Below are positions 17,450 to 63,593 of a stretch of DNA of 64,000 nt, piece after piece; position 1 is the stretch's first letter, and each line of letters begins with the position of its first letter. The position numbers were made by a program, and so were the translations under genes. Below the pieces are notes generated by a model. The model did no database searches. It saw only the letters and a program-made list of their open reading frames with translations, and was not told the origin of the DNA. This DNA comes from a virus, in IMG/VR virus record IMGVR_UViG_3300025520_000004, positions 1 to 64,000 of that record; one strand, 5' to 3'.

Positions 17450-17487
17450 TTGACTAGTAAGCAAATTCACTGATTTGTCACTTCCCG
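17450..17487 (+). promoter_or_regulatory. Late element P1: TTGACT-N19-TTGTCACTTCCCG, then ATG
   Basis: Member of the 7-copy motif. ATG of the small terminase candidate at 17488. Confidence 0.6.
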
Positions 17488-18129
17488 ATGGCACCAAAGA
17501 AGAAAATCCCTCGTAAAAAAGCACCTAGCAAACGTGTGGCGAAGAATGGTAGGTCTAATTCATGGGAAAATACTAACTCAACAATCTCAGTTAACTCGAC
17601 CGAAAATACAATACCGAGTCGAGAACCAGAGGAGATCTTTTTAGAGAGTAGGGGAGGGAAAGAATTTGAACCAATCCCCAAAAACAAGGCCGTTGTTCTT
17701 TACAGAGAATTCCCAGATGTCTCTCCATTTCAAGAATCCGGATTAATTCTATTCCGAGCTGGGAAATATAAAACGCACATTGGTCCTTTGATTGGGAGAG
17801 CTCGGGATTGGTTCGGTTGGAATTACAAACACTGTGAACCATTTCGAAAGTATGCCGATGAAATTGAACTGGAGCTCTTATCACATATTCGCCAAAATTC
17901 CGTTCCCGTTGCCGTTGGTTTCTTTCGAATCTTAGAAGAGATAGCTTCAGGCGACTATGACTTTGAGGACAAGATCCAGGCTGGAAAATTAGCCTTCGCC
18001 TATTTAGAAAAAACGGGACGGCTTCCTAAGTCCGATGACAAAGAGGAAGAAGACAAAAAGATAGAACAAGCAGTTCAGGCACTTTCAACTGCGCTTGCTG
18101 AAAAGTTTGGGAATGACCTTGCGATATGA
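17488..18129 (+). CDS. Terminase small subunit candidate
   Basis: Basic N-terminus. 4-nt overlap with the large terminase gene. Call is positional. Confidence 0.5.
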   Translation: MAPKKKIPRKKAPSKRVAKNGRSNSWENTNSTISVNSTENTIPSREPEEIFLESRGGKEFEPIPKNKAVVLYREFPDVSPFQESGLILFRAGKYKTHIGPLIGRARDWFGWNYKHCEPFRKYADEIELELLSHIRQNSVPVAVGFFRILEEIASGDYDFEDKIQAGKLAFAYLEKTGRLPKSDDKEEEDKKIEQAVQALSTALAEKFGNDLAI

Positions 18130-19817
18130 TCCAAATCGAGGAATTGCGTAAGGAATTAAAAAGGTATCCGGCCAAAGTCGCTGAAATTTATCTCAAGCGA
18201 TTTTTAGAAAAACAAAAAGCACAATCCGGAGAAGGGAATCCCGCCACCTTACGACGAGTAAAGGCCATAGAAAGTTTTCGAGTATTTCTCAATACTTATT
18301 TTGCTCACTACTTTTCTACTGAGTTTGGGGAACAGCAATTGGAATTGATAGAGGACATACAAGCCTTTGCTGGAAAGAAGGGTAGGGGGCCGATGAAAAT
18401 AATCCGAGCTCTCTCCCGAGGTTTTGGAAAATCAACCATTCTCTCTTTATGCGGTGTCATGTGGTTGGTGCTAAGGCGTGATTGGCATTTTGTGATCATG
18501 GTCAGTGCCTCACTCACACAGGCGAAAGGTTTTCTCCAAAAGATTGTGGATGAGTGTGAAGATAACGAACTTCTTGTATCTGACTTTCCAGAACTAAGAC
18601 CTGCGAAAGATCAAAAGGGGCAGAACGTTGCTTGGAATGATTTGGATATTGTTTTCCGTGGTGGTGCCAGGATCATCGCGAAAGGTTTTCTCAATGCCAT
18701 TCGTGGAACTCGGTACAGACAATATCGGCCAGACGCTTTGATTGTTGATGATCCGGATGAAGAGAAGGACGTTGAATCAGATTCCCGAATGCAAAAAAAA
18801 TATCGTTGGTTCGATCGAGCCGCATTGAAGCTCGGAGCTCAGTGGGGTATTGATGTAGTTTTATCTTACACAACTCTTTCACCGAATTGCGTTGGTGAAG
18901 TAATCTACAACGACACCAAAAAATATTGGGATTGGAATCGGAAAAAATTCTCTGCAATTGGAACACATCCGGATGGATCCGAGTATTCTACTTGGGAAGC
19001 AGGGGCACCTCTCTCCATGCTTGTAAAGGAAAGAGAAGTCGATCCAATTTCATTCGCAAGAGAAAGGCAGAACGTCATACTCGCAGAGATCGATCAGAAA
19101 TTCAAAGGTAGAATTCAAACTTACGAATTTGTTAGGCAGGAATCATTTGAAGGATGGACTCTTGGATTGGCCGTGGATCTTTCGCTTGGGAAGACTCAGA
19201 GATCAGATTATTCCGCAATTGTCGGTGTTGGACTTTCTCCACAGGGAAAATTCTACGAACTCTATTCAGACATTGCTAGAAGACCTCCAGATCAGATCCA
19301 AATTGACCTTGTAAAGGCTCTCAGAGCGTTTCCATGGACAGTTGCGGGTGTTGAGACCAGTGGAGGGCAGGAATACTTCCTGGACGCATTTAAACGGCAT
19401 TTGGAAGACTGGAATGAACTTTGTGTAAACCCAAATAACGGCCAAGGATTAACACCCGGTGATCGAATCATTGTTCCAATGGTTGGGATCCCAAACACCG
19501 GAGATAAGATCAAACGAATCGAAGGGGCATTGCAAACAATAATAGCAACTGGCCTCATGTTACTCAGATCCGATTCTCATTTACTTTTTGAAATGCTAAA
19601 CGAATTCCCTTACAAGAAACTGGACGGTCCCGACGCATTGGAGATGGCTCATCGATTGATAGTAGAACAAATGGGGAATATGATAAGTATAGTCACACCA
19701 GAACAGTTAGCGAAGGCAAGGGAACGGGAATCGGGTTTGCGTCAAGAATCTCAAGTTACAATTGGGAAGTCTATTGAGCAGCTACGAAGAGAACAATTAA
19801 GAAGGCGTGGTTATTAA
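18126..19817 (+). CDS. terL: Terminase large subunit
   Basis: Walker A-like SRGFGKSTIL, Walker B ALIVDDPDEE, C-terminal RNaseH-like nuclease region LAVDLSLGK..DYSAIVG. Confidence 0.8.
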   Translation: MIQIEELRKELKRYPAKVAEIYLKRFLEKQKAQSGEGNPATLRRVKAIESFRVFLNTYFAHYFSTEFGEQQLELIEDIQAFAGKKGRGPMKIIRALSRGFGKSTILSLCGVMWLVLRRDWHFVIMVSASLTQAKGFLQKIVDECEDNELLVSDFPELRPAKDQKGQNVAWNDLDIVFRGGARIIAKGFLNAIRGTRYRQYRPDALIVDDPDEEKDVESDSRMQKKYRWFDRAALKLGAQWGIDVVLSYTTLSPNCVGEVIYNDTKKYWDWNRKKFSAIGTHPDGSEYSTWEAGAPLSMLVKEREVDPISFARERQNVILAEIDQKFKGRIQTYEFVRQESFEGWTLGLAVDLSLGKTQRSDYSAIVGVGLSPQGKFYELYSDIARRPPDQIQIDLVKALRAFPWTVAGVETSGGQEYFLDAFKRHLEDWNELCVNPNNGQGLTPGDRIIVPMVGIPNTGDKIKRIEGALQTIIATGLMLLRSDSHLLFEMLNEFPYKKLDGPDALEMAHRLIVEQMGNMISIVTPEQLAKARERESGLRQESQVTIGKSIEQLRREQLRRRGY

Positions 19818-19836
19818 GTCTTTCTTTTGTGTATTT

Positions 19837-20075: not shown

Positions 20076-20479
20076 ATAGCGGAACGTTTTCCACTAAGGT
20101 AGGAATACCAATTTGTTATTTCGTAAATTACCTCGATAGAGTAGAAGGCATCGCTTCAAATAACTTTCTTAAAGCAAAACAAAAATTCAATGTTTGAAAT
20201 GGTAAGTTATGAAAGCAATTTGCTCCCAATTATTGTATCCGAATTAACTAACTGCAATGTCTATAATACATGTTTTAAACAAAATATTATGTCACATTTC
20301 TCCCTTTAGTTTTCTATATTTTGGTGTCATATTTGTAAATTTGGCAACTGTCACTTTTTGAATTCCGTTCATTCTGTTATTTCGCTGATTTTCAACCAGA
20401 AATTGTGGTTTAGAATATTAGGATAAAAACTTATTTGTAATTTTCGCCTTACTTGAATTCTGTGGCCTGACGAGGTAAT

Positions 20480-21079
20480 ATGCGAAAGTACTTTATTCTA
20501 TTGTTAACTTTATTTTTACTGATTGGTTGTGATTTCAGCACACCAAAAGGGAAAATGTTTCCCGCTTCTTTACCGGCTAACCAAGTTAGATACCCTGCTT
20601 TGGTTGTTTCTCCCGATTTTGTTCCTTCGCCATTGATTGAAGAAGAAGAAAAAGCGCTTGATATGATAATTAGAACTCAATCTAGGATGGGGCTAGATAG
20701 AGAGGATGTGAGGCAAATTCAGCTTGAGGGAATTAGGGGAATTAATGCAACATTTCACAATCCAAATATAGCTGAAGAGTTAAAATTCATTGGGAATATT
20801 CCAGGATTTATTCCAGGTATGAATATGTTTGAATATTCAGACCAAGTGATTCAGACCATGATTGCAGAATTGAAAGATTATCCAATTTCTGCATTAAAAG
20901 AATATAGAAAAGAAGTAATTACTTGGGTTTATACATTGCAGCGTATTAAGCAATCCTGCACTGATCCTACAGTCGATGAGTGTAAGTTGTTAGGTCATGT
21001 AAGCGATCGTTATTTACTGTTACGTGAAGAAATTATCAAAGAATTGTCATTAAAGACTAAAAAGGAAATGGGGCTATGA
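20480..21079 (+). CDS. Lipoprotein (cargo)
   Basis: Signal peptide with lipobox-like LLIGC. GAGG SD. Confidence 0.6.
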   Translation: MRKYFILLLTLFLLIGCDFSTPKGKMFPASLPANQVRYPALVVSPDFVPSPLIEEEEKALDMIIRTQSRMGLDREDVRQIQLEGIRGINATFHNPNIAEELKFIGNIPGFIPGMNMFEYSDQVIQTMIAELKDYPISALKEYRKEVITWVYTLQRIKQSCTDPTVDECKLLGHVSDRYLLLREEIIKELSLKTKKEMGL

Positions 21080-22473
21080 CCAAGAAAGTAATTATCGCTA
21101 TACTATATCTTTTCTCATTAAAAGTCTACGGTAGTGAACTTTCAAATTGGTATAATGACAATATACTTTCAAAATTTGGAAGATTTCCTACACAAACTGA
21201 AATTGCTTCTGAACTTTTGACTGCTTATCAGGCAAAAAATTTTTTTGCCGAGCAGTTTTTGCTAAGAGTCGGTGGTAAATGTTATCAAAAAAATGAAGGA
21301 AACTCCTTGCCTCGTGGTCCAATAACACAAGCTGAAGTACAGGCAAATACTAGGCGACATATCCTTTTTTGGGGCGATTCGCTTTTCGATTTCATTGATA
21401 CTAGTTTAAAGCCGATCAATGATTCCGAGAATCCACATTATGTAAATCCTGAATTATATTTCGGCTCAAACTGGAATTTAATTGGGAATGCGGCATTAGG
21501 TGGAACAACTACTGAAGATCTCAGGAATCATCTTGATTTACATGCCAATTATCAATATGACAAGTTTTATCCTAATCCATATACAGATGGACATGTAAAT
21601 TTGGAAAACCGATATGCTGTTATATTATATGGAGGTAATGATCTTCTTAGATTTGAAATTATATTGAAAGCGCTGCCATTTTTAACTGTATTTAGACAAA
21701 ACGCAGTCGTCAATAACCTAAATCGTATTGTAAGTTATCATCAAGCTCAGGGCTCGCGTGTCCTTTTGGTAAGTCAAGCGCCTAGACCAACACTAGAATT
21801 CAATTACTTTGGCGATTTTGGAGAACTTGGACAATTTTTCAGTGGTGTAATGTCATATTTCTATAATATATTAGCCTATGCATTGGTACAAACAAATACG
21901 GTAGTCAATGACATCAATTCATGTATTGCGCAGGGTATGTGTTATCCAGCTCAAACAATAAAAGAAACGACAGTTTCCGCAATTTATTCAGGTTCTCATG
22001 GGCGAGAATTAGAAATAGTCATGCTGAATAAGTTGAAAAATCCTGGACATGACATGACCTGGCTATCACAGCAACTTGGTTATATGTCTTTAATGACTAG
22101 AAACTATGTAGCATTGCAGCGCAATGTTGAATATTTAGATGAGTGGGCACATTTCCTGGATCCAAAAGCTGTTGAGCAAAGAAAATGGTGGCTGGGCAAT
22201 AAGATTTTGTTTGAAGATGACTACGTGCATTTTTCACATCCATGGGGACATGCCCTTAATGCTCAAAATATAACAAATAGATTAAACCAATTAGGTTGGT
22301 GGGCCAATCCAATTCCAACCCAAGGCGATAGATGTAATTTTACATCTTCCGCCTCGTTCCCAACTGGGCAACCGGCGATTTGGACTCCTGAACCTCCCCC
22401 ATTACCAGGAGCTGATGAAAATGCGATGTTATTACTTTTACTATGTTTTTACTTTGGAGTGTGTTCGTTTTGA
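21076..22473 (+). CDS. Secreted SGNH/GDSL-like hydrolase
   Basis: Signal peptide. Block I LFWGDSLFDF, block III LYGGNDL, block V DDYVHFSHP. Confidence 0.55.
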   Translation: MTKKVIIAILYLFSLKVYGSELSNWYNDNILSKFGRFPTQTEIASELLTAYQAKNFFAEQFLLRVGGKCYQKNEGNSLPRGPITQAEVQANTRRHILFWGDSLFDFIDTSLKPINDSENPHYVNPELYFGSNWNLIGNAALGGTTTEDLRNHLDLHANYQYDKFYPNPYTDGHVNLENRYAVILYGGNDLLRFEIILKALPFLTVFRQNAVVNNLNRIVSYHQAQGSRVLLVSQAPRPTLEFNYFGDFGELGQFFSGVMSYFYNILAYALVQTNTVVNDINSCIAQGMCYPAQTIKETTVSAIYSGSHGRELEIVMLNKLKNPGHDMTWLSQQLGYMSLMTRNYVALQRNVEYLDEWAHFLDPKAVEQRKWWLGNKILFEDDYVHFSHPWGHALNAQNITNRLNQLGWWANPIPTQGDRCNFTSSASFPTGQPAIWTPEPPPLPGADENAMLLLLLCFYFGVCSF

Positions 22474-22715
22474 GAATAACAAATTTAGTTCTGATGGTTT
22501 CGTTCTTTTCGATAGGTATTGCGAATTGTAATAATGATCCGATTTTTTATAAGAGTGATAAAAAGTCTGCTACAGAGTGTTTTTCGATTCAAGTATTGTG
22601 CGAGAGTCAATTGGAACAATGTAAAAGACAAAATGCTGCTGATTTGCGTGTTTGTGCAGATCCGCATTTGGCTTGCTCTAACTATGTAAATGATTGTCTA
22701 AAAAAAACTAAATGA
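22443..22715 (+). CDS. Small Cys-rich secreted protein or lipoprotein
   Basis: Hydrophobic N-terminus ending IGIANC. Start uncertain. Confidence 0.35.
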   Translation: MFLLWSVFVLRITNLVLMVSFFSIGIANCNNDPIFYKSDKKSATECFSIQVLCESQLEQCKRQNAADLRVCADPHLACSNYVNDCLKKTK

Positions 22716-23014
22716 AGATATTGTTAATAATTTCATTTATCGGTTTGCTTATAAGTAATTGTATCCCAAATAAAGAAACAACTACTTGCCCAACACAGTT
22801 AATTGAAGTTAAAAATGAAAAAATCACCAATAATAAAGTTTGTAACCACAGTTTAATGGAGATTGAAATTTTGCCAAATCCAACTAGCAATGACATTACG
22901 AGAAGAATTAAATTTTGTTATTATGAAAAGAAAAATGGGAAACTATTATTTTATGCAGATAATGGAAATAAATCAATTTTTGAGGTTTCAGATATTGAAT
23001 CTGTCATTTGGTAA
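22712..23014 (+). CDS. Small lipoprotein
   Basis: MKILLIISFIGLLISNC lipobox-like. Confidence 0.45.
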   Translation: MKILLIISFIGLLISNCIPNKETTTCPTQLIEVKNEKITNNKVCNHSLMEIEILPNPTSNDITRRIKFCYYEKKNGKLLFYADNGNKSIFEVSDIESVIW

Positions 23015-23735
23015 AATTTCGTTTTTCTTCTTTGTATTTTTTTATCCTTTTTTTATTTTCTCGGAATCAACTTGGAATAAAGGTGCAATAGTTCTAGAAA
23101 AAGGCTATCTGATTGACGGTGAATATTCTTCGGATAACAAAGGAGTATATTTTCGCCAAGATGGCCAAGGGAAATACTTTGAACACAAAGAAATCCGTTC
23201 TATTGTTGATGTTGATTATGCAAAGAAGATAAGAAAGTCTAGTCCTGGTAATGCAGCCATTGAATCAATATATAAATTTAATGCAGGTGATTCTTTTAGA
23301 TTTTCAAAGAATGGAGAAGCAGGCTATATAAATGACAGAGTAGCACTTACTTCCAAAATTACTTCTTTAGCTTTTGTTCTTTATTTTTACTTTGATACAA
23401 TGAATAAAAAACAAGCAGTTAGTAATTCAATTGTATTCGTAAATTACGACCAAAGTAAAAACGAATTCCTAACTTCACGGACAAATTTTTATTATTCTTC
23501 CGCAATATTCTTAGGATTGGTTGCCTATTTTGCTTTTAATGCTTATATGAACTTTGATACGAATCGCGAAGGTCATAAAACAGGAACTTTTGAATCGAAG
23601 GATATAAACTTAAAAGAATACTTATCAATGCAATTCCCGGAAAGATCATCATTACTCTACGGCGGACCTCAAGGAACAATAATCGGCGATAATCAAATCT
23701 TGAAGTATGAGAAAAGTATATTATTTAATTATTAG
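22962..23735 (+). CDS. Membrane protein (cargo)
   Basis: Hydrophobic N-terminus ISFFFFVFFYPFFIF plus later TM segments. Start uncertain. I chose ATG 22962 instead of the track start at 22863. Confidence 0.4.
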   Translation: MEINQFLRFQILNLSFGKISFFFFVFFYPFFIFSESTWNKGAIVLEKGYLIDGEYSSDNKGVYFRQDGQGKYFEHKEIRSIVDVDYAKKIRKSSPGNAAIESIYKFNAGDSFRFSKNGEAGYINDRVALTSKITSLAFVLYFYFDTMNKKQAVSNSIVFVNYDQSKNEFLTSRTNFYYSSAIFLGLVAYFAFNAYMNFDTNREGHKTGTFESKDINLKEYLSMQFPERSSLLYGGPQGTIIGDNQILKYEKSILFNY

Positions 23736-24291
23736 TTTTTCTATTTTCAGTTGCTTCGATATCCCCGGCCCAAATGTGGGGAAATCTGGTCTTTTGCTTA
23801 CTTCCCTTTATTTTTCTCAATCTGGTTGCAGATTTGATGTTCAAAATAATCTGAATGAGAGTAAATCAATCTGCCTAAATTCTCCGCTTTCTGAATGTAG
23901 TCTTAACGGTTTGGTAAATTCAAATATCTCAAAAATTTCGAAGCTTAAAACTGGATTAAAAGATATTGCAAAAAAATATGACCGATGTGTTATAGATGTT
24001 TACGATTTACTCAATTATCTAGAAAGTTTGGCTGAAGAAAAAAATATAATCCTATGGAGATATGGTTATGTCATTAAGGAAAGTGCAATCATTGTTGATG
24101 TAAACTGTAGTTCAAGCTCGAATAATAGTGGATTAATCAGTCCTCTGGAGTATAGTTTAGTTTTTGATCCATCAATTTATACAGCAATTTATGCACAAAA
24201 TTCCGACTGTAGCCTTCAGATACCATTAAGCGAAAGTGAAAGAACGCTTGTTAATGATATTAAGTCAGGGAGGAAGCTCCTCTTCCTCTGA
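23707..24291 (+). CDS. Lipoprotein (cargo)
   Basis: LIISFSIFSC lipobox-like N-terminus. Confidence 0.45.
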   Translation: MRKVYYLIISFSIFSCFDIPGPNVGKSGLLLTSLYFSQSGCRFDVQNNLNESKSICLNSPLSECSLNGLVNSNISKISKLKTGLKDIAKKYDRCVIDVYDLLNYLESLAEEKNIILWRYGYVIKESAIIVDVNCSSSSNNSGLISPLEYSLVFDPSIYTAIYAQNSDCSLQIPLSESERTLVNDIKSGRKLLFL

Positions 24292-24480
24292 ATTGATTTA
24301 ATTTGCGAGAATCTCATGCTCTTATAGCTTTGATATCTAATTTTAATCTTGTTATGCATTTATAATCATTTTTTCATAAAAACTACGGCAATATGTCTTT
24401 ATAAATCAAAGAATTAATTAAACTAATGCTAGCTAGTATTTAAGTATCGATTCCATTGAATCAGGATAATGTGCCTGAAT

Positions 24481-24527
24481 TTTGAATAGTTACCGCCTGA
24501 CTATTCAAATGAGTTATCTCTCATTTG
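24481..24527 (+). terminator. Two overlapping hairpins (10-bp stem TTTGAATAGT/ACTATTCAAA; 8-bp stem CAAATGAG/CTCATTTG)
   Basis: Read directly. About 190 nt after the preceding gene. Weak T-tract. Confidence 0.3.
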
Positions 24528-24786
24528 ATTTACCTGAAATTAAAAATTCATTTTTGTTTGAAACTTTTGAAATAAAATTAATCAGGAATTATATTGATAT
24601 GTTGAATTAAAGCTTGGATCTAAATCCGCTACATTTTCCCGAACTAGATTATTATTAAATACGGCCAACAAGAAATTTGTTAACAAAACAACCGTTTAGT
24701 TTTATTTTGTTTACTGTTAGGCTAAAAATACTTGATTTTGTTTAATGAAATTATTTTATTAGGAAAAAATTAGGAAAACCGAATAA

Positions 24787-25893
24787 ATGAAAAAAACAAT
24801 ATGCTTATTCTTAACTCTTCTAAATTCGATTCTATATGCAGTAGATACGCGAGAATCGGCGGCCTACATTAGAGGATACGAACTTACCGTAGATTCTGCT
24901 ACATTGAAAAATGGTCTCTCGATGCAGAATTCATTAATACTTAATCGATTGATAGGTGGGACAACTAATTTAACAATTCCTGCTACAAATCAGTTCAAAG
25001 GTAAAGGAGTCGAAATTGGTATAAATAAGCGTCACAGTGGGCTTCTGGGAACAGACTTTGGGATTTCATTCGCTACATTGTTTGCCGATTCAAATTATAC
25101 TGGAGTCTATGCAACTTCGTCGTTACGATCCGGTTCAGGTTCATCTGCCATTAATTTGGCTTCTGAAAGTTTTACTGCTTATGAATTTACTTCAAATAGA
25201 TTACAGACTGCAAATATCAAAATAGCTGAGAACATCTATTTGTTTCATGATTCTGGTCAAAAATTCCTTGAAGGTTTGGCTTTAAGATTAGGTGGAGAGA
25301 TTTATGGAAATGAAATTAAAGCCACATCTCCATATAACCTATACAATTCCAATATAACTATAAATGGAACTAGAACGCAGGGAAGCGGGTTTGCAGTCGC
25401 TCCAATTAATGAGACAACTTACAATGAGGTATATTTGAATGCTATTTTAGGGTTGGGTTACAATTTAAAAATCGCAGAAGGTCATAATTTAACTATTGGA
25501 TATGAGTATTTAAAAAGTGTAGCAAATTCAGGAGATTACAAAAACAAAACGAAATCTTTGTTAGCGCTCTCTCCCACGCTTGCATTTCCTTCTGAGACGA
25601 AAATGAAAGGTAAAGTTGAATCAGAAATGGAAGGTAATCGTATTAATTTAGGTTATCGTTTTCTAGTTTCAGAAAATGTAAGTTTTGGTATAAATTACTC
25701 TCATACTGAAGCAACGCATAGAATCGTTGATAGCAAAGTCAAGGAGCCAGGCAATTTCTTCACTTTGCTTACTAGTGGTTCAAGTTTCAATCCAATCCCA
25801 TTTTTGTTAGGAAGTCAACCTGGGTTCGGGCCATTCCCTGAGAACAAAGATATCCGTAGACAAATTGGAATTGAATTTGCTCTTAGATATTAA
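24787..25893 (+). CDS. Outer-membrane beta-barrel protein candidate
   Basis: Signal peptide. Alternating-pattern strands. C-terminus IEFALRY ends in an aromatic residue. Confidence 0.5.
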   Translation: MKKTICLFLTLLNSILYAVDTRESAAYIRGYELTVDSATLKNGLSMQNSLILNRLIGGTTNLTIPATNQFKGKGVEIGINKRHSGLLGTDFGISFATLFADSNYTGVYATSSLRSGSGSSAINLASESFTAYEFTSNRLQTANIKIAENIYLFHDSGQKFLEGLALRLGGEIYGNEIKATSPYNLYNSNITINGTRTQGSGFAVAPINETTYNEVYLNAILGLGYNLKIAEGHNLTIGYEYLKSVANSGDYKNKTKSLLALSPTLAFPSETKMKGKVESEMEGNRINLGYRFLVSENVSFGINYSHTEATHRIVDSKVKEPGNFFTLLTSGSSFNPIPFLLGSQPGFGPFPENKDIRRQIGIEFALRY

Positions 25894-26252
25894 ATTACTA
25901 GGGACTATAGATTAATTTTTAATTAATCTCTTTTTTTACTAAAACTATTAGGTTCGAGTTTTACTGATCTTATCGTAAATCGAACAATAAACTGACTTCA
26001 TTATTTGAAAGAATTCAGTTTATTGTTCGATTTTATGTCTGATAAGATTGAATATTGCAACTTTTGCATCTGTTTCTTTCTGCACAATGAGACATAGTTC
26101 TAATGCGACGTAATTCTTATTATAGGAAGCTACCTGTTGCCTCATATAATTACCTACTCCAAATAGAAATAATGCTTCAAAAGTAAAAGTATTCGAAGTA
26201 AAGTCTACATCTTTATGAGTGATGACCATTCAAACACATAAAGGGAGAGTCT

Positions 26253-26822
26253 ATGGAAAAAAGAATTAATTATTACACTCCAGAACTTACTGAATATAGC
26301 ATTATAAATTTCAGTATCATAGGGAAAGCGCTTTGTGTGGCTACTTACTTTGATAAAATTTGCAAGAATTTCTTATTAGCATTGGTGATAAAGTATCCTC
26401 AGTATTTCAAAGAAAAATTTAATGAATTTAATAATATAAATTTAAATTCAGATGAATTATATAGCCAAATAATGAAAATTGCGGATAAAATTAATTTAGA
26501 TAGATGTATTAAAATATTATCAAAAATAAATACAGAAAATGATAAGTTTATTGGATTTTTTGGCCGTTTTGATAAAGCAAGAGAAGCGAGAAACTTTATT
26601 GCGCATGACTTGTGTTTGGGTTACCCTGAGAACATTAATAAAGCAAACTTTCGCGCTGAATTGGCCAGGGAGATAAAAGAAAATACTTCGGAAATTGTTA
26701 ATTGTTTGGTTCTTATGGAGGATTTGATTTTGTCCTTTAACAAAGAAGGAATGTTACCGGGAATCGATAAGTCTTCCTTAGTTGAAAATATTGTCTCCTG
26801 GGTATTGGATGATGAAATATAA
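26253..26822 (+). CDS. HEPN-like (Rx4H) protein candidate
   Basis: KAREARNFIAHDL contains R-x4-H in a helical context. Confidence 0.35.
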   Translation: MEKRINYYTPELTEYSIINFSIIGKALCVATYFDKICKNFLLALVIKYPQYFKEKFNEFNNINLNSDELYSQIMKIADKINLDRCIKILSKINTENDKFIGFFGRFDKAREARNFIAHDLCLGYPENINKANFRAELAREIKENTSEIVNCLVLMEDLILSFNKEGMLPGIDKSSLVENIVSWVLDDEI

Positions 26823-26900
26823 GAAAGCAACCTTTTCGGAGTTTGTTTTCAAACGAATTTAAAAACCCCTTAAAACCCCACTTTCAACCTTAAAAAACGA

Positions 26901-26937
26901 TTGCAATGATTGAGAACTATATTTCTTGTCACTTCCC
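26901..26937 (+). promoter_or_regulatory. Late element P2: TTGCAA-N19-TTGTCACTTCCC, then ATG
   Basis: Member of the 7-copy motif. ATG of the portal gene at 26938. Confidence 0.6.
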
Positions 26938-31825: not shown

Positions 31826-31862
31826 TTGAATTCTCGCATGGGGAATGCCCTTGTCACTTCCC
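31826..31862 (+). promoter_or_regulatory. Late element P3: TTGAAT-N19-TTGTCACTTCCC, then ATG
   Basis: Member of the 7-copy motif. ATG at 31863. Confidence 0.6.
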
Positions 31863-38718: not shown

Positions 38719-38799
38719 TTATTGCAGTTGGATACCTAAATCTCACACTGGGATTTAGGAACGGACAAGGCTTTGGACTACAAGGAAACTGAATAGTTT

Positions 38800-38960
38800 T
38801 CTCATGGGTATGGGTGGCGAGTGGTTCCTGGCACAAGATGGCGGAAAATACAGACGCGGTGGGCGCCGAAAGACTCTCCCCCATGACTCCGAGCGAAGGC
38901 TGACTGAGAGATGTAAGCTGTGTAATCGGGATGAAGGTGCAAACCCTTCTCTTGTGAAAA
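38800..38960. other. GC-rich non-coding block (possible structured RNA or relic)
   Basis: I counted 67 G+C in the 120 nt of 38821-38940 against an AT-rich background. No convincing ORF on either strand. Confidence 0.4.
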
Positions 38961-38982
38961 TTTTAAGATAAGGATCCGGAAC

Positions 38983-39474
38983 GTGAGTAATAAATTTCAA
39001 CAAAAAAGAGCCAAACAAGTTATAGGGAAAGAGCGAGTAGAGTTACTCACATTTACGCATAGATTCTATCTTCATTACATGAATCCTATCCATCGATGGG
39101 TTGTACTTGCATTGTTCAAATTATCTGTGAAAGCAAATCTAAGAAAGAAGCCGAGGCTTTCTGATTTTTTACAGTTTCTTTCTCAGTTTATCCAGGCGTT
39201 TGCGGGATATTCTGTTACTCATGTTTCGAATGTTCCTCCGAAAATTGATATTTACTCAATGGGAACAAGAATTGGCCTCGCAAATTTTTTCTGGAAAAGG
39301 CGATGGCTGTTAATGTGTAAAATATTCCTTTTGGGAAAAGATCCAGATTATATCGATTCTATGAAGCGGTTAATTGTCTCAAATTATCGAGAAGGTCTGA
39401 ATTTGCCTGAGCCAACTGCAAGCGCAGTAAGTCGGGATTCGGTTCGACAGGTTTCGCCCTTGAAGCAGGCGTAA
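38983..39474 (+). CDS. Doubtful ORF (GTG start)
   Basis: Unusual composition. Overlaps the minus-strand ORF by 116 nt. Confidence 0.2.
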   Translation: MSNKFQQKRAKQVIGKERVELLTFTHRFYLHYMNPIHRWVVLALFKLSVKANLRKKPRLSDFLQFLSQFIQAFAGYSVTHVSNVPPKIDIYSMGTRIGLANFFWKRRWLLMCKIFLLGKDPDYIDSMKRLIVSNYREGLNLPEPTASAVSRDSVRQVSPLKQA

Positions 39475-39751
39475 GAATTTTATAAATATCGCGGTGTCTT
39501 GTATAGATACCGTTGATAATACCCATTGTAAGTTTCTTTTGAGCATGTGTTAGATAGATTGATTTAGTTCGGATATCTCTAAGCGTTCTCACTTCTGATA
39601 AAAAAATTCTTATCTTCCCTTGAGAAAACAATTCAAGTAATCTATCGATTGATGCGTGAATTATAATGAATTCCGCCGTTGGAATATTTGGATCAAAACT
39701 CTCTTCTTCTTGTGCCACAATAATCCGATAATACGAGACATAAAAAAACAT
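39359..39751 (-). CDS. Hypothetical 130-aa protein on the opposite strand within the late module
   Basis: Only minus-strand ORF inside the head region. Its start lies 21 nt from the -35-like hexamer of P4, in divergent orientation. Confidence 0.4.
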   Translation of the reverse strand: MFFYVSYYRIIVAQEEESFDPNIPTAEFIIIHASIDRLLELFSQGKIRIFLSEVRTLRDIRTKSIYLTHAQKKLTMGIINGIYTRHRDIYKILTPASRAKPVEPNPDLLRLQLAQANSDLLDNLRQLTAS

Positions 39752-39771: not shown

Positions 39772-39808
39772 TTGCAAATTGCAGGTAATTCATCCCTTGT
39801 CACTCCCT
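39772..39808 (+). promoter_or_regulatory. Late element P4: TTGCAA-N19-TTGTCACTCCCT (leadered variant)
   Basis: Same architecture as the other copies, but the ATG lies downstream (39830 or 39842) and GAGG at 39834-39837 could serve as an SD. Confidence 0.55.
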
Positions 39809-39841
39809 AATCAAATACCTGCTCCGCTTATGCGAGGTAAA

Positions 39842-40630
39842 ATGTTAGCAAATATAGATCAGAAAATCAACCAAGCTCAAGGAGATGCTAGTAAAGAACT
39901 AGTTGTCACCTCTATCGAGAAGTCCTCTTTGCCGGTCAAAATTGGATCTAAACCTTTCTATGTTCGAGAAAGTGATACAGGTAGAAAGTTTTATTGGAAC
40001 GGCCTCAAGTTTGTCGACCTAACAAATGATCCTGGTATTCGTGCATGTAATACGTTGCGAGTCGCGGCTAATGTCGCTGATGCGGAAACCGTTGTAATTG
40101 GTGCAAGAACATATGAATTTGATCGTGCTGCTGACGGAGTTGTGTCTGGGAACATAGCTGTAAAAGGTCATGCGGATGATACACCTGGGAATGCAATTGC
40201 TTCACTTGTTGATGCTATTAATTCAGATCAAATTTCTGAAGTTACGGCCATTAAAATTTCTGCCAATGAAATGTTTGTATACCACAAAGTACCTGGTAAC
40301 AAGACTACTCCCACTACAGAAACTCTCTTGGGAGTAAATAACGGATGGGCCGCTGCAACATTACTCAATGGACGTGAGCCAGGAAGTCAGGCATATTCAG
40401 TGATCCGGCGCGTTCCTACTGCGGTTGAAGTCGCTTTAGGTGTAATGCATTTCTATTTCGATTTCCCTCCTACATTGGCCGACATTCGAGTCGTTGTAAC
40501 AGCGACTCCAGGTGTTCCTTTAGCCTGGGACGGTGCAGTAACAATTACTGGGAATAGACTCACGATTGACAACTCTGGCTCAGTCGATTGGTCAACTACG
40601 AACACAATCGTTCTTACTGTGGCAAAATAA
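39842..40630 (+). CDS. Virion structural protein candidate
   Basis: Has its own late element plus an SD. Ala/Val/Thr/Gly-rich beta-type sequence. Alternative start at 39830. Confidence 0.5.
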   Translation: MLANIDQKINQAQGDASKELVVTSIEKSSLPVKIGSKPFYVRESDTGRKFYWNGLKFVDLTNDPGIRACNTLRVAANVADAETVVIGARTYEFDRAADGVVSGNIAVKGHADDTPGNAIASLVDAINSDQISEVTAIKISANEMFVYHKVPGNKTTPTTETLLGVNNGWAAATLLNGREPGSQAYSVIRRVPTAVEVALGVMHFYFDFPPTLADIRVVVTATPGVPLAWDGAVTITGNRLTIDNSGSVDWSTTNTIVLTVAK

Positions 40631-46754: not shown

Positions 46755-46791
46755 TTGACTTTCATTGGGATCCATTCCTTTGTCCTTCCCC
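46755..46791 (+). promoter_or_regulatory. Late element P5: TTGACT-N19-TTGTCCTTCCCC, then ATG
   Basis: Member of the 7-copy motif. ATG at 46792. Confidence 0.6.
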
Positions 46792-50898: not shown

Positions 50899-50935
50899 TT
50901 GATAATTTTGGAGTCTAGTTCCTTTGTCACTTCCC
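50899..50935 (+). promoter_or_regulatory. Late element P6: TTGATA-N19-TTGTCACTTCCC, then ATG
   Basis: Member of the 7-copy motif. ATG at 50936, heading the tail block. Confidence 0.6.
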
Positions 50936-52972: not shown

Positions 52973-52975
52973 GCC

Positions 52976-53425: not shown

Positions 53426-53427
53426 GT

Positions 53428-54103: not shown

Positions 54104-54106
54104 GCC

Positions 54107-55816: not shown

Positions 55817-55831
55817 GTCAAATTTCAATAA

Positions 55832-56416: not shown

Positions 56417-56447
56417 TGCCTAATCTAGACGTAGGCGGTAATGCTTG

Positions 56448-56696
56448 TCAAGGTTTTTGGGTCTGGGCAAATTCTATGAAAACTTTTTCGCAGTCATCGA
56501 TTTTAGATTTCCATTGAGAGAGAAAACTTTTATGAATCTTTGTATTTGTATTTTCTCTTCTTGGAATTTTCAGTAATTCAATCAAGATACCATTTCTTTG
56601 TATCTGGAAAATCGTCCATTGTTCTTTATTTAATATGGTTACACCTTTGCTATTCGCATATTCAACTATTTCTTTTAGAGCGTCTTGAAATAACAT
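56448..56696 (-). CDS. Hypothetical small protein
   Basis: Its start is separated from the stop of the 179-aa gene by a single base. Confidence 0.4.
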   Translation of the reverse strand: MLFQDALKEIVEYANSKGVTILNKEQWTIFQIQRNGILIELLKIPRRENTNTKIHKSFLSQWKSKIDDCEKVFIEFAQTQKP

Positions 56697-56697
56697 T

Positions 56698-57549: not shown

Positions 57550-57828
57550 TTATTTTTTGTGAAAAGAAAGCGCACTTCCAGAAGCGCCATAGCAAATTGA
57601 AGTGGAATTCTCACATCGGACTACCCCTGCCATTGCCAGCATTCCGCCTTCACTATTGGGATTGGTCAACTCTGACAGCATTTTAACTATAGGTGAGTCA
57701 TCACCTGCAATAATTCTAATTTGCTTGCAGACCAAATCATGCCCGGTGGCCCCATTCGGATTTTCGTCTTTACTGAAAATAGGAAATGTAATTGTCAAAA
57801 AGAAAAGTATGAATAGAAAATTTTTCAT
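57550..57828 (-). CDS. Small secreted protein
   Basis: Signal peptide MKNFLFILFFLTITFPIFS. Three Cys residues in the mature part. Confidence 0.45.
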   Translation of the reverse strand: MKNFLFILFFLTITFPIFSKDENPNGATGHDLVCKQIRIIAGDDSPIVKMLSELTNPNSEGGMLAMAGVVRCENSTSICYGASGSALSFHKK

Positions 57829-58101
57829 GAGCTAACTTAAGGTGAGGCGAAAAAATGAGTCAATTCTAATTGTAAATCAATACGAAATAAATTAAGTCAA
57901 AGCAAATCGAGAACAAACATACAACTACCGTATTAAAAACGAAAGCCTTACCATAAGTCCCAACGTGCGCTAGGGTTTGAAAAATGCACAAGGAATAGCA
58001 GAAGACTATTTGTCGCAGACCGATAGAGGCTGACAATAAAATCCAAACCAGGCGTTTATTCTATATTATGTGCTTTTTAAATTAAAATTAATACATATTG
58101 C

Positions 58102-59247: not shown

Positions 59248-59249
59248 AA

Positions 59250-59780
59250 CTAAAATTCACCATGTTGAAGTTTTTCTACTAGATTCGAGAGTTCTTCTGC
59301 AGTGAGCAAGTTTTTACGAGGGATTTTGAGAGTTACCTTACTATCTGCTGGTTTCCTTTCTTTATCTGTTATATCATACCAGTAACACGCACGCTTAAGG
59401 ATTAAGCAATCTTCGTTTACATTTAACCAACTATTTTCATCTACAGGTAAGCAAAATGCGATTAAAATTTGTCTGAGACTCCTTCTGTTATTATTTGCAA
59501 CAAATTTGTTAAAAGCGTTACTAGCAATAGTAAACGTTACAAAGTCATCTTTAAAATCATAATTTGAGGATGATTTTAGTTGAAAGCAAAGGGGGTATCC
59601 AATTTCAGTCATTTCATTCTTTTGATTTTCATTCACTTCAACAAAAACTTTGGAAAATCTACCATCAATTCCATAGTCAAAATTTGCATCATTGATGCGA
59701 ATTAATAACCCAGCTTTCCCGGCAATGGCCTGAACATAAGATATACTTAGGCTTTCTTTTCTATGGTTTTCAGTAATCAT
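59250..59780 (-). CDS. DUF4365-like PD-(D/E)xK nuclease-fold protein
   Basis: SLSISYVQAIAGKAGLL...DYGIDGRF...CFQLKSS fits the DUF4365 pattern (D..D ... Q-x-K), from memory. Confidence 0.55.
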   Translation of the reverse strand: MITENHRKESLSISYVQAIAGKAGLLIRINDANFDYGIDGRFSKVFVEVNENQKNEMTEIGYPLCFQLKSSSNYDFKDDFVTFTIASNAFNKFVANNNRRSLRQILIAFCLPVDENSWLNVNEDCLILKRACYWYDITDKERKPADSKVTLKIPRKNLLTAEELSNLVEKLQHGEF

Positions 59781-60002
59781 TTTTTGAAAGACCTACAAAT
59801 ACATTTACAATATAAGACTTGAATGAGCATTAATATTTTTCAAATAGACTTATTAGTGTTATCATAAAGTTTCCGCTTATATTTAGTTTTTAATTAGATT
59901 TATTAAAAAATCGCACTTAACTCATATTATCAATATATAACACCTTTTTAGGGAGAAATCAGAAAATTTATCACTTTTCCAATCTATTTCGGAATTAATT
60001 AT

Positions 60003-62783
60003 TTATTTTGCGTTTTTTCTTCCTTTTTTAGCTGGGATTTTAATCTGCGAAGTCAATGTATTTGTGTATTTTTCGTAGAGCTCAAAAAGGAACTCTACTC
60101 TCTCAGATTCAGACTGAAATGGCTTCGACCGATAAGCCTTGTCCACGGCTTTATCCAGCTTGTTGTGGGCATCTCTAAGAACTTTTGGCATAGTTAGTGG
60201 GTCGTAGAGATCAGCAAGCGATGACTCAGGGAATTGCGCTCTTGCATCCAAAACAGATTTGGCAAATGATTCTATTTCTACCTTTTGTTTCTCAGTCGGA
60301 TCTTCTGGCCATGGGAAGTTGTTGTAGACAATATCTTTTGAATATCGATAATCTCCCTTAATTCTACCACATACAACTCGCATCCAAGCATTATGCATAA
60401 GTGAAGTTATTATCCCAAAATGATAACGGTTTGCATTTTGAATTGAAAAACAACTATCTGCAACTATGTCATTTTTTGAAAAAAAGCCAAACGGAACATA
60501 CAATCGATTTTCGGAAGAATGTCTAGGAACTAAAATATAGTCAGACTTCGGCTGTGTAACTTGCCTAAAAAGATGATGATATTTATAAGATCTTGTAGAT
60601 AGTGCTTTACTCTCCAATCGGAACTTCCGAACCTTTTCAATTCGCTTCATAATGAATGGAATATCTTTGTATTGAGATGGATCTACTTCATCCAACCAAA
60701 TACAATATCTTTTTAACCCGTTTAGATATTCTTTCGCGCTTACAAAGGGGCGAACAAATTCTTTAATTCGATTATCATCTAGTATTGCAGCATTAAATTC
60801 TTCTTCTGTTAAAAGAAAATTTCCATCATCAGTTGGTTTTGAACCATAAAGCATTTTTGGAGTATGATCAAAAAGAGGATGACTTCTGTTATCAAGAAAT
60901 ATATTTTTCCCTTGGTTTAGATAAGGGTTTATATTAGATGCATTCTTCTCAACTGGTTCAGCATTAGCATTTTCATAAAAGAAGATTCTTTTATTTCTTT
61001 TTTCTATTTTTGAAAACCCAATTATTACGCAAAAGACTGCAGCTTTCCCTTTTGCCTCATTACTCCATTTAAAGGTTCTATGAGCGAAAAAAATTGAGAC
61101 CCCATATTTTTCAATCATAGGCTTCCAAAAGATTCCTACTTGCTCGCCTTGAGTTATTGAATTTGTCGAAACAAATGCAACAAGTATGTTTGGATTTTTT
61201 TGAATGTATCTAGCAGCCAACATATACCACGCACAAACATAATCCATTACACCTGAAGCCTGAATTTCATTTAGTACTACATTGAGTTCTTCTTTCTGGG
61301 CTGTTGTTTGTAAATGATGACCAATAAATGGAGGATTCCCCAGAATGTATGAAATTTCATTCGGGCTGATTATTTCTTCCCATTTCAATTTTAGAGCATT
61401 CCCAAAGACAATCATTGGAGATTTCTTCAATGGGAGCCTAACGTAATACTCTCCAAATTCTTTACCTGTTTCGACATTCATCAAATGATCCATAATCCAT
61501 ATTGCCGTTTTTGCAATTTGAGCAGGAAATTCTTCGATTTCAATACCGTATAAACAATCAACATCGAGACTTTCAAGTGTTTGAATTGATAACTCAAGTC
61601 CAAGTCCTTTGAGTTTTCTGATTTCCTTTAATAAATTGATTTCAAGACGTCGAAGTTCGCGGTAGGATAAAATTAAAAAGTTACCGCAACCGCAGGCTGG
61701 ATCTAGTATTTTAATTTTTCTAATCCGAGCCAATAGGTCATCGAGCCCTTTAATACTCTTCTTTGATTTTAAAGTTTCAAATTCTTCCAGCAGATCATCC
61801 AGAAAAAGTCCATGAATAGTCTTTAATATATTCTTTTCACTCGTGTAGTGTGCTCCAAGCTCTCTCCTTTCAGCGGTATTCATTACAGATTGGAATAAAC
61901 TTCCGAAAATAGCAGGGCTAACAAGAGCCCAATTAAATTCGCAAGTTTGAATTAAAATATCGCGTAACACACTATCAAATTGTGCGAATGGAATTGATTC
62001 TTCAAATAATTGCCCATTGACATAAGGGAATTTTGCAAGGTCTTCATCTAGATTTGCGAGCCTTTGTTCCGTAGGGGTATTGAGTACTTGGAAAAATTGA
62101 GCAATCCAAAGCCCTAAGTCGCTACCATCCTGCTTGGTACGTTCTTTCAGGAAGAAAAGAAAATCGTCTTTATTGAATATTCCAGTATCATCGGCAAAGA
62201 AACAAAACATCAGACGAACAAGCATAAGTTTTAGAGGATGTTCCTGGAATCCATTCCTCTTTAGCTCATCATGCAATTTCTTCATGAGCTCTGCAGCTTT
62301 GATATTTACTGGATCTTCATCTTTGTATTCCCGCTGTTCATATCCGAGTAAAAAATTAAATCGTTGAAGGTGATCTAGAAGATCGGTGATTTTAAATTCT
62401 ATTGATTTTTTATGGTCTGTAAAATTTACCAATCGAAGTCTTTCAAAATCGCATACACAAATATAACTTGGAAGTTCTTCATCAGGGATGCCTCCGGTTA
62501 AACAGTAGTCTAATGCTTGTTTATACGCTTTATCTAAATCTTCACCACGACTCTTCTGTTCTATCAGAATTGTTTTGGGCCAGAAATAGTCTATAAATCC
62601 CGTCGTTTGTTTTAAAGTTTTTGCTCTCTCTTCAAAGATCCCTACCTTTTTGGCGCTAATTCCCCATATATTAAAGAAATCTCTCCAGAATATTTGAGAT
62701 TCCCCCTTTTCGTATTTGTCATCTTTATGGTCGTGAATAAATGAAATTGCTCTAGATTTGATTTCGTTAGGTGATAATGCCAT
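60003..62783 (-). CDS. MmeI-like Type IIL/IIG restriction-modification enzyme
   Basis: 926 aa. N-terminal nuclease motif IDYFWPKTILIEQKSRG (D...ExK). MTase motif I LDPACGCGNFL, motif IV GNPPFIG. Confidence 0.8.
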   Translation of the reverse strand: MALSPNEIKSRAISFIHDHKDDKYEKGESQIFWRDFFNIWGISAKKVGIFEERAKTLKQTTGFIDYFWPKTILIEQKSRGEDLDKAYKQALDYCLTGGIPDEELPSYICVCDFERLRLVNFTDHKKSIEFKITDLLDHLQRFNFLLGYEQREYKDEDPVNIKAAELMKKLHDELKRNGFQEHPLKLMLVRLMFCFFADDTGIFNKDDFLFFLKERTKQDGSDLGLWIAQFFQVLNTPTEQRLANLDEDLAKFPYVNGQLFEESIPFAQFDSVLRDILIQTCEFNWALVSPAIFGSLFQSVMNTAERRELGAHYTSEKNILKTIHGLFLDDLLEEFETLKSKKSIKGLDDLLARIRKIKILDPACGCGNFLILSYRELRRLEINLLKEIRKLKGLGLELSIQTLESLDVDCLYGIEIEEFPAQIAKTAIWIMDHLMNVETGKEFGEYYVRLPLKKSPMIVFGNALKLKWEEIISPNEISYILGNPPFIGHHLQTTAQKEELNVVLNEIQASGVMDYVCAWYMLAARYIQKNPNILVAFVSTNSITQGEQVGIFWKPMIEKYGVSIFFAHRTFKWSNEAKGKAAVFCVIIGFSKIEKRNKRIFFYENANAEPVEKNASNINPYLNQGKNIFLDNRSHPLFDHTPKMLYGSKPTDDGNFLLTEEEFNAAILDDNRIKEFVRPFVSAKEYLNGLKRYCIWLDEVDPSQYKDIPFIMKRIEKVRKFRLESKALSTRSYKYHHLFRQVTQPKSDYILVPRHSSENRLYVPFGFFSKNDIVADSCFSIQNANRYHFGIITSLMHNAWMRVVCGRIKGDYRYSKDIVYNNFPWPEDPTEKQKVEIESFAKSVLDARAQFPESSLADLYDPLTMPKVLRDAHNKLDKAVDKAYRSKPFQSESERVEFLFELYEKYTNTLTSQIKIPAKKGRKNAK

Positions 62784-62866
62784 CGGTATGCAAAATTGAA
62801 ATACAAGGAACTAATGAGTCAACCAATTTGGATAATGTAGAGGCTCTCTTGTTTGATTCTTTTCCG

Positions 62867-62903
62867 TTGACAAATTACAAAATCCACGAATTTGTCCCTT
62901 CTC
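62867..62903 (+). promoter_or_regulatory. Late element P7: TTGACA-N19-TTGTCCCTTCTC, then ATG
   Basis: Member of the 7-copy motif. ATG at 62904. Divergent from the restriction-modification gene. Confidence 0.55.
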
Positions 62904-63593
62904 ATGGCAGAATTCCCATCATTTGGAAGACAATTAAAGGTTGCTTTCGCTCCACCAGGACTTGCGCAGCCAGGGGTAATGAATGGATTGGAACTCGGTG
63001 AAATTGATTCTCTCAGTGGTGGGCTCATGAAATACCGAGCTGACATTCGTCTTTTCAATGGCCAGATTCTAAAGAAAGTACGCCTCCCAGGACCTTACAT
63101 CGGTCTTTTGGGGTTTCTATCTGGATTCAAATTTGGATATAGAGAAGGACAAATGGTGCTTGTTGGATTTCTCCAAAATCGTAGGGACAATCCGATAGTC
63201 ATCCAAGTGTATCCTTTCGCAGCAGAGACAAAAGGAAAAAGTTCACTTCTCAAACATTCTACACAATTCGATTCTGAAGAAACATCCGTCGGCCATGAAT
63301 CTGGCCATCGAACAAAATGGGATAAAAATAAAGTTCTCTTTAAAGATAAATTAGATACTACCAGAGTCCAAATCGATCACACAATTCCACCAATCCTAAA
63401 CTCTCTGGAAAAAGCTGCACAAGGAGAAACTTTGAAATCAATCCTGGAAGAAATCTGTGACGAAATCACTAAAATCACGGTTCAGTGTACAGCGCCTGGG
63501 ACATCGAGCTTAACACCAGATAACTCGGCCAAGTTTCTTGTGATTAAGGGAAAATTGAACACAATCCTTTCCGAGGTTTTAAAACACTACTAA
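62904..63593 (+). CDS. Baseplate hub/spike (gpV / Mu gp45-like) candidate
   Basis: GQMVLVGFLQNRRDNPIVIQVYPF resembles the OB-fold block of gpV-type spikes. First tail gene after the island. Confidence 0.45.
   Translation: MAEFPSFGRQLKVAFAPPGLAQPGVMNGLELGEIDSLSGGLMKYRADIRLFNGQILKKVRLPGPYIGLLGFLSGFKFGYREGQMVLVGFLQNRRDNPIVIQVYPFAAETKGKSSLLKHSTQFDSEETSVGHESGHRTKWDKNKVLFKDKLDTTRVQIDHTIPPILNSLEKAAQGETLKSILEEICDEITKITVQCTAPGTSSLTPDNSAKFLVIKGKLNTILSEVLKHY

Follow-up and report, generated by a model that had tools for sequence, protein, structure and literature searches.

A conserved two-part element at the heads of late gene blocks in LE1-like Leptospira plasmid-prophages: candidate late promoters with predicted leaderless transcripts

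A short two-part sequence recurs at the heads of the virion gene blocks of a Leptospira virus, mostly hard against a start codon that lacks a Shine-Dalgarno sequence. Is it a promoter and, if so, where would transcription begin and what would recognize it? The sequence lies in positions 1 to 64,000 of the IMG/VR virus record IMGVR_UViG_3300025520_000004, and this whole stretch of 64,000 nt is referred to here as the window. Each copy joins a −35-like hexamer, TTGNNN, to a box, TTGTC, placed 19 bp downstream. The seven copies are read here, with a probability of about 0.7, as lineage-specific late promoters of the LE1 family of leptophages, from which transcription would begin on the start codon that follows or no more than 2 nt away from it. 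Their late timing is deduced from the content of the genes that they head.

Judged by its sequence, the window (G+C content 37.8%) is an LE1-like Leptospira plasmid-prophage. It matches most of Leptospira phage LE1, a 73.6-kb plasmid-prophage of L. biflexa, at 77-91% nucleotide identity in a circularly permuted order, and Leptospira bouyouniensis has a protein 99% identical to one encoded here. The virion genes run on the plus strand from 17.4 kb onward. An earlier, sequence-only reading had proposed seven plus-strand copies of the element with a spacer of exactly 19 bp, and all were found where it had placed them, with TTGNNN, 19 bp and TTGTC (TTG-N22-TTGTC) in 7/7. The sites, and the open reading frames (ORFs; lengths in amino acids, aa) that they head, are as follows.

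Site 1, 17450..17487, plus strand: TTGACT-N19-TTGTCACTTCCCG (32.6 bits), ATG at 17488; heads a 213-aa ORF, then the large terminase gene (18126-19817; phrog_38).
Site 2, 26901..26937, plus strand: TTGCAA-N19-TTGTCACTTCCC, ATG at 26938; heads the portal gene, 57 nt past the end of an island at 20107-26844.
Site 3, 31826..31862, plus strand: TTGAAT-N19-TTGTCACTTCCC, ATG at 31863; heads a 1973-aa Eco57I-methylase/SNF2 'DarB-like' gene, 13 nt after the preceding stop codon.
Site 4, 39772..39844 including the leader, plus strand: TTGCAA-N19-TTGTCACTCCCT, GAGG at 39834-39837, ATG at 39842; heads a block reaching to the major head protein.
Site 5, 46755..46791, plus strand: TTGACT-N19-TTGTCCTTCCCC, ATG at 46792; heads an 857-aa ParB-domain protein.
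Site 6, 50899..50935, plus strand: TTGATA-N19-TTGTCACTTCCC, ATG at 50936; heads an 83-aa ORF, then the tail sheath, the element being the entire 37-nt gap after the preceding stop codon.
Site 7, 62867..62903, plus strand: TTGACA-N19-TTGTCCCTTCTC, ATG at 62904; heads the gp40/gp41 homologues and diverges from a minus-strand MmeI-like gene, 83 nt beyond it.

The copies had been assigned to the heads of terminase, portal, DarB-like, structural, ParB, tail and baseplate blocks, and these assignments are broadly right. The 213-aa ORF after site 1, which has no family match, is probably the small terminase. The 229-aa ORF after site 7 is without an assigned function; its LE1 counterpart precedes the baseplate genes.

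The exact 12-mer TTGTCACTTCCC occurs in four of the seven copies, with about 0.008 occurrences expected by chance on both strands of 64 kb, and the looser pattern TTG-N22-TTGTC has 14 matches in the window compared with 2.5 expected from shuffled sequence. A position matrix gives the seven sites 31-39 bits and the next best window site 16.4; since the matrix was built from these same sites, the scores of the seven are circular, yet they stand clearly apart from the background. If TTGTC is counted only where an ORF of 60 aa or more opens with ATG or GTG 6-10 nt past it, the window yields only the six abutting sites. Start codons abut these six as had been claimed, with the ATG 7 nt past TTGTC in five and 8 nt past it in the copy at 17450. 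Site 4 is the sole copy in the window with a leader (~30 nt); the GAGG described there is present, and its ATG matches the start of LE1 gp19.

Upstream of the boxes the picture is less distinct. Several copies had been said to follow an A-tract; an A- or T-rich stretch does precede TTGNNN, and the 15 nt upstream average 73% A+T over the 34 sites considered below, but this is weak evidence in a genome of 62% A+T. A doubtful extra copy, TTGATT-N19-TTGTCTTCA-ATG, lies on the plus strand at 15339..15375, before a ParB-like partition gene. Its boxes and spacing match and it is kept in LE1 (at 2757), but its ATG falls just 4 nt past TTGTC, which does not fit the geometry of the other sites; a CATACT hexamer, 8 nt before that ATG, offers an alternative reading. 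A hairpin, CCATAGCG-N9-CGCTATGG, stands just upstream of site 5. Directly upstream of the −35 box of site 1, which heads the packaging operon, a 14-bp inverted repeat (GCAGTAATTTACTG ... CGGTAAATTACTGC) occupies 17404-17442 and could be a regulator site or a packaging signal. LE1 has related repeats containing ACTGCAA in another arrangement, one of them inside the spacer.

The sequence-only reading had suggested a scan of related genomes, and the element was indeed found at the same gene boundaries in homologous phages. No other line of evidence on it is as strong as this comparison. LE1 has it at 7/7 homologous gene heads; the boxes are the same as those of the window, while the spacers differ at several sites. 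LE1 also carries an extra divergent pair, at 47990 (minus) and 48011 (plus), between the baseplate genes gp43 and gp44, a part of the genome outside the window. The LE1 RefSeq record starts gp44 at 47958, which is 90 nt before the element-abutting ATG at 48048 and overlaps the divergent gp43 promoter; on this sequence evidence the annotated start is probably wrong. A more distant pathogen clade (portal 61% identical) comprises pLiSL21 of L. kirschneri, pLiSL40 of L. interrogans and contigs of L. adleri and L. ainazelensis. Its homologous gene heads carry TTGMHW, a spacer of 19 bp (20 bp at the portal), TTGTC and, after 7-9 nt, ATG or GTG; the portal site, with its 20-bp spacer, has a GTG start. 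Orthologues of site 1 were found in LE1, pLiSL40 and L. ainazelensis, and pLiSL40 likewise has a back-to-back divergent pair, with its baseplate genes on opposite strands. Element orientation thus follows the strand of the gene, as the divergent pairs of LE1 and pLiSL40 illustrate. Intermediate relatives, assembled from sequencing runs, show the same pattern at gene heads.

Altogether, 34 sites in eight such genomes were compared. TTG and TTGTC are present in 34/34, and a pyrimidine precedes TTGTC in 33/34. All spacers but one measure 19 bp (33/34), the exception being 20 bp. Of the last three bases of the −35 box, the fourth of the hexamer is A or C, the fifth anything but G, and the sixth A or T in 33/34. 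Because the sites were gathered by a search for TTG-N21-23-TTGTC, the invariance of these anchors is partly by construction. What is informative is the location of the matches, at the heads of homologous genes, together with the lack of any relation among the spacers between the anchors. Within one genome, all sites have in common only TTG, the spacer length and YTTGTC (plus CTTCCC). In the pathogen clade the CTTCCC part is not kept and another pyrimidine-rich sequence takes its place, and the intergenic DNA has diverged. The two boxes, the gap between them and the start-codon distance are kept across clades while CTTCCC is replaced; selection therefore acts on these features, and the functional core, as far as sequence comparison defines it, is TTG, the spacing, YTTGTC and the start-codon distance.

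The distribution of the element is narrow. A portal-based genome scan returned only 10 loci, and the clades at 33-42% portal identity lacked it, namely the LalZ-type LE1-like phages (33%) and two Leptospiraceae contigs (38-42%); it was also absent from the lytic L. biflexa phage LE4. A pattern scan of IMG/VR found it only in LE1 itself and one close relative. Matches in 11 other IMG/VR contigs were set aside as chance-like, being at most 21 bits and in unrelated DNA, much of it of far higher G+C content. The element is thus missing from LE4, which shares a host with LE1, and from LalZ-type relatives, and the CI-type operator of the window is confined to the immunity region, a combination that points to a feature of one lineage.

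Where would transcription begin? The start codon lies 6-9 nt past TTGTC at 27 of the 34 sites, and the remaining seven have leaders with a Shine-Dalgarno sequence. Counted from the hexamer TTGTCN, the gap is about 6-8 nt (6 in the LE1 clade, 7 in the pathogen clade). This equals the usual distance from a −10 box to +1, and the geometry is therefore that of a leaderless promoter; if the A of the ATG is taken as +1, the downstream box occupies −12 to −7. The claim that abutting starts lack a Shine-Dalgarno sequence held for the genes abutting the element. Among LE1 genes, 0/8 element-abutting genes have one, compared with 44/71 others (hypergeometric p ~0.001). The family of site 4, with its start codon 20-30 nt away, has a Shine-Dalgarno sequence in every lineage examined (GAGG in the window, GGAGAG in pLiSL40 and L. 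adleri, AGGA in L036, AAGGA in L038 and AGAGGA in L040), and the gp43 copy of pLiSL40 has acquired a 17-nt leader together with AAAGGA. All computational tests that were run agree with the leaderless-promoter reading.

Leaderless mRNAs are common in Leptospira. Roughly 184-440 L. interrogans genes are leaderless, with 184 transcription start sites on the start codon itself at 30 °C and 170 at 37 °C (PMC5243855). The window itself contains two ordinary sigma-70-type promoters in its minus-strand accessory block.

56422-56451, minus strand: TTGACA-N18-TAGATT, gene start at 56416.
57829-57863, minus strand: TTGACT-N17-TTAAGT, gene start at 57828.

Because the −10 boxes of both end 5-6 nt before the ATG, a leaderless architecture appears to be in use elsewhere in this genome. 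The late elements differ from these accessory promoters in the −10 box and an additional 2 bp of spacer alone.

Two boxes at a fixed distance, a free spacer, an orientation that matches the gene and a position at the heads of blocks together make up the signature of a promoter, in which a polymerase holoenzyme reads double-stranded DNA directly. The class to which it would belong is less familiar. Its −35 box is close to the sigma-70 consensus TTGACA, but the spacer (19 bp, 20 bp in one case) exceeds the 16-18 bp of sigma-70 promoters, and no TAnnnT −10 sequence was found 16-19 bp from the −35 box in the sites, where the box is TTGTC[A/C/G]. The downstream half had been described as not of the TATAAT type, and this is borne out by the lack of both A(−11) and T(−7). 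A scan of the late region for the ordinary sigma-70 consensus gave matches at chance level. Promoters of extracytoplasmic function (ECF) sigma factors have an AAC-core −35, a GTC or CGTC −10 and a spacing of about 16-17 bp; the element shares the GTC, but has TTGMHW as its −35 and a wider spacing. No conserved GG was seen 10-11 nt upstream of TTGTC in the aligned sites, as the −24/−12 arrangement of sigma-54 (GG and GC 10 bp apart) would have it, and the sigma-28 (FliA) sequence TAAA-N15-GCCGATAA was not found in the sites. Neither did the element resemble a structured RNA, with 0 predicted pairs in 11 aligned sites and no Rfam match in the window. A coding reading, in which TTG starts a peptide MSLP, was rejected because 12, 13 or 14 nt separate it from the ATG in different copies and the frame varies.

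The proposed mechanism would run as follows. RNA polymerase would contact the sigma-70-like −35 box (TTGMHW) and then the non-canonical YTTGTC exactly 19 bp further on, possibly aided by an UP-like contact with the A/T-rich stretch upstream. Initiation would take place 6-8 nt past TTGTCN, that is at the A of the ATG or 1-2 nt earlier, leaving the first gene leaderless; at site 4, where the start codon is farther away, a normal Shine-Dalgarno sequence would take over. With neither A(−11) nor T(−7) in the −10 box and 2 bp too many in the spacer, the element presumably needs a dedicated factor. The promoters would be silent in the lysogen and fire only when this factor, either a divergent sigma made by the phage or a protein that reprogrammes the host holoenzyme, is available.

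Part of the sequence-only reading concerned accessory islands, after each of which a copy was thought to re-prime late transcription. A copy does follow both the island at 20107-26844 and the accessory block at 55.8-62.8 kb, but LE1 has the promoters without the first island. Because LE1 has the portal promoter without that island, insertion of the islands at operon boundaries already present seems the better reading of the sequences, rather than promoters that re-prime transcription after them.

Three other explanations of the element were weighed against the late-promoter reading. If a host alternative sigma factor (e.g. one of the numerous ECF sigmas of Leptospira) read the elements, late expression would be tied to the stress response of the host. 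The failure of every search to reveal a phage sigma or activator is in keeping with this, as are the GTC core that TTGTC shares with ECF −10 elements and the strictly fixed spacer, which is typical of rigid two-domain sigmas. The occurrence of the element in hosts from saprophytic to pathogenic Leptospira means that such a factor would have to be present in all of them. Nevertheless, the −35 box resembles TTGACA rather than the AAC type, ECF promoters have spacers shorter by 2-3 bp, and the published study of L. interrogans transcription start sites found no such motif (PMC5243855). The lack of the element in LE4 from the same host and in LalZ-type prophages from the same species points the same way, although this is a weak argument. 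On balance a host sigma is considered unlikely, though it is the least improbable of the three.

Much less credit is given to an element acting in longer transcripts at the level of RNA, as a translation enhancer independent of Shine-Dalgarno pairing or as an endonuclease site that creates a 5' end at the AUG. The pyrimidine-rich 12-mer does abut the start codon and, with most copies lacking a preceding terminator, read-through RNA containing the element is likely. Such an element has no need of a TTG that never varies and sits exactly 25 nt upstream, beyond a spacer that is not conserved, and the sites have no consensus structure (0 pairs in 11 sites); moreover, the pathogen clade keeps TTGTC only, the part nearest the AUG varying, and at site 4 the element is ~30 nt from a start codon for which a Shine-Dalgarno sequence takes over. 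Least probable of all, by a small step, is the idea that the copies are not core promoters but binding sites for a regulator, or junctions for the exchange of modules. It is true that they mark the boundaries of functional modules and that two directly follow variable islands. The 8-9 bp conserved across clades are, however, too little for homologous exchange, the halves form neither a dyad nor a direct repeat of typical operator length, and LE1 has the same sites without the first island. The CI-type operator of the phage is a different sequence, ATAGGGAGCCTATAT, and direct control by a CI-like repressor was rejected because this operator is confined to 8648-8698. Regulator sites or junctions would also leave the start-codon distance and the Shine-Dalgarno pattern unexplained.

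Several points weigh against the late elements being promoters that depend on a phage factor. Searches with Pfam, PHROGs and NCBIfam took in about 60 proteins, among them those of the regulatory region, minus-strand island and 6.7-kb island of the window, LE1 gp55-gp70 and the products of ten early genes of pLiSL40, and revealed neither a sigma factor nor a late activator nor an RNA polymerase. AlphaFold models of two lineage-restricted proteins, gp17 (predicted local distance difference test, pLDDT, 72) and orfX (pLDDT 67), were weak and had no fold match in PDB better than E = 1, and it is possible that a host alternative sigma reads the element. No transcription start site data were found in the literature for L. 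biflexa or for LE1-type elements. Terminators were not found upstream of most copies; read-through transcripts therefore probably exist, and the translation from them of genes without a Shine-Dalgarno sequence is not explained. Some orthologues in the pathogen clade start with GTG, which is a poor codon for leaderless translation in E. coli; in mycobacteria it works.

What might the factor be? The part of the LE1 early operon that lies beyond the window (gp42-gp69), examined with proteins from the LE1 record, gave no match to such a protein, and Sigma70_r2 or Sigma70_r4 domains and gp55-like or Lpa-like proteins were found in none of the ~60 proteins. A lone Sigma70_r4 match was discarded as sub-threshold (16.7 bits) and internal to the helix-turn-helix of the CI-like repressor. 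When LE1 and pLiSL40 were compared with LalZ and LE4, the only non-structural genes that track the element were the gp74-76 module, the gp78-81/immunity genes, gp17 and orfX (phrog_21632, ~112-130 aa).

39359..39751, minus strand: orfX, divergent from site 4 and overlapping the 3' end of the gp17 homologue, which is at 38983-39474.

The orfX product is 96% identical in LE1 and 46% identical in pLiSL40, and is absent from LalZ. It is unannotated in the LE1 RefSeq record, where a plus-strand 'gp18' is annotated instead; from the sequences, 'gp18' is probably spurious. The gp17 and orfX families have 4-6 homologues each, all in Leptospira. By its position and co-occurrence with the element, orfX is a speculative candidate for the regulator. 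A bolder form of the proposal, to which we give rather less than an even chance, is that a factor of the LE1 family, unrecognizable by sequence, redirects the Leptospira polymerase to a grammar of TTGACA-like box, 19 bp and YTTGTC, and renders the whole late programme leaderless. Were this so, orfX (phrog_21632), the gp17 family or another protein confined to the lineage could be the factor.

The closest precedent, in how the system would work and not as a matter of membership, is judged by analogy to be the late promoters of Thermus phages. Late promoter classes are known in Lalka27a and YS40, and Lalka27a has sixteen dispersed late promoters with a −10 consensus of their own (bioRxiv 10.64898/2026.04.20.719267). 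The likeness extends to dispersed late promoters, a −10 that is not that of the host, divergent pairs and few terminators. Most of the Thermus phage transcripts lack a leader, their first base being the A or G of the start codon, and the proposal there is that a phage factor alters the specificity of the host polymerase. Their −10 box, however, is TAGGGT, of the TAnnnT type, accompanied by a C at −25, whereas here a TTGACA-like −35, 19 bp and YTTGTC are found; the host belongs to another phylum, and start sites were mapped there and are predicted here from sequence. Leaderless promoters of the sigma-70 type, such as PRM for lambda cI and those of L. interrogans (PMC5243855), also have a TTGACA-like −35 and no Shine-Dalgarno sequence, and their −10-region hexamer ends 6-8 nt before the start codon. 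They differ from the present elements, which have TTGTCN without A(−11) or T(−7) and a spacer of 19-20 bp rather than 16-18 bp.

Phages P1 (Lpa-dependent) and T4 (gp55-dependent) repeat a short late promoter at each operon, on either strand, and require a phage factor to read it. P1, too, is maintained as a plasmid prophage and has a DarB protein, but its late promoters combine a normal −10 with a conserved inverted repeat in the spacer, and those of T4 consist only of TATAAATA, with no −35. Neither is built for leaderless mRNAs, and no homologue of Lpa or gp55 was found here. Group 4 (ECF) promoters share the two short boxes, the rigid distance and a GTC core downstream; the −35 box here is not GGAAC/AAC, the spacer is longer and no ECF sigma gene was detected in the phage. 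The sequence grammar thus differs from those of the Thermus, P1 and T4 promoters, and the element belongs to no named family. No description of it was found in the searchable literature, a scope outside which the original LE1 genome paper (PMC1151745) falls. The 12-mer TTGTCACTTCCC appears in no Leptospira paper searched, and the paper on LE3 and LE4 is silent on promoters.

Promoters of Leptospira are poorly defined, and the only genome-wide study of transcription start sites found no −10/−35 consensus (PMC5243855). The 37-bp element offers sharply defined boxes conserved from saprophytes to pathogens. It may serve as an entry point to the redirection of polymerase, to the lytic control of LE1-type plasmid-prophages, which are widespread in pathogenic strains, and to systematic leaderless translation. 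Genetic tools for the genus are few, and the element could also furnish it with a tightly controlled promoter inducible by phage; several gene starts of the LE1 reference are corrected by it. If a phage factor and a new promoter grammar are indeed involved, spirochaetes would gain their first described phage-specific transcription system, and Leptospira genetics a compact, switchable promoter.

The remainder of the window contains the following features.

428-7728, minus strand: part of a leftward early operon (helicase, ParB-like, SbcCD-like).
1930-2805: a ParB-like protein of the early region.
6730-7680: the gp76 family member.
After the early operon: an immunity region with a CI-like helix-turn-helix gene, then partition and replication genes.
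20107-26844 (6.7 kb): a window-specific island of eight plus-strand ORFs with no counterpart in LE1.
55.8-62.8 kb, minus strand: the accessory block.

A 48-aa stretch in the C-terminus of the ParB-like protein at 1930-2805 is weakly similar to the last pLiSL40 early gene. The island at 20107-26844 was inserted between the large terminase gene and the portal promoter; six of its ORFs were scanned, with nearly no family matches and one weak match to a GDSL lipase. Two exact copies of ATAGGGAGCCTATAT (core dyad ATAGG-N5-CCTAT), present nowhere else in the window, lie at 8648-8698 between divergent helix-turn-helix genes, 8299-8601 on the minus strand and the CI-like gene, 8704-9084, on the plus strand, and are probably the immunity operators. 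A 264-nt non-coding gap at 38719-38982, between the gp16 and gp17 homologues, looks richer in G+C by eye; Rfam gives no match for it, and it folds with an ordinary energy (z = −1.4).

Three minus-strand loci are accessory or defence-like in character. A STAS-like DUF4325 protein adjoins a weakly matching HATPase_c protein at 10623-11856, a SocA/Panacea-domain protein is encoded at 16644-17090, and a DUF4365 protein lies beside a complete MmeI-type restriction-modification enzyme at 59250-62783.

Among the relatives without the TTGTC element, LalZ_80412 (KF114876) contains TCCGATA 27 times, compared with 10.8 expected. Several copies of TTTTTCCGATA are located 20-40 nt upstream of its late gene starts, that of the portal included. 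This CCGATA-type motif (TTTTCCGATA), which resembles a sigma-28 −10 box, may be the late promoter of that lineage.

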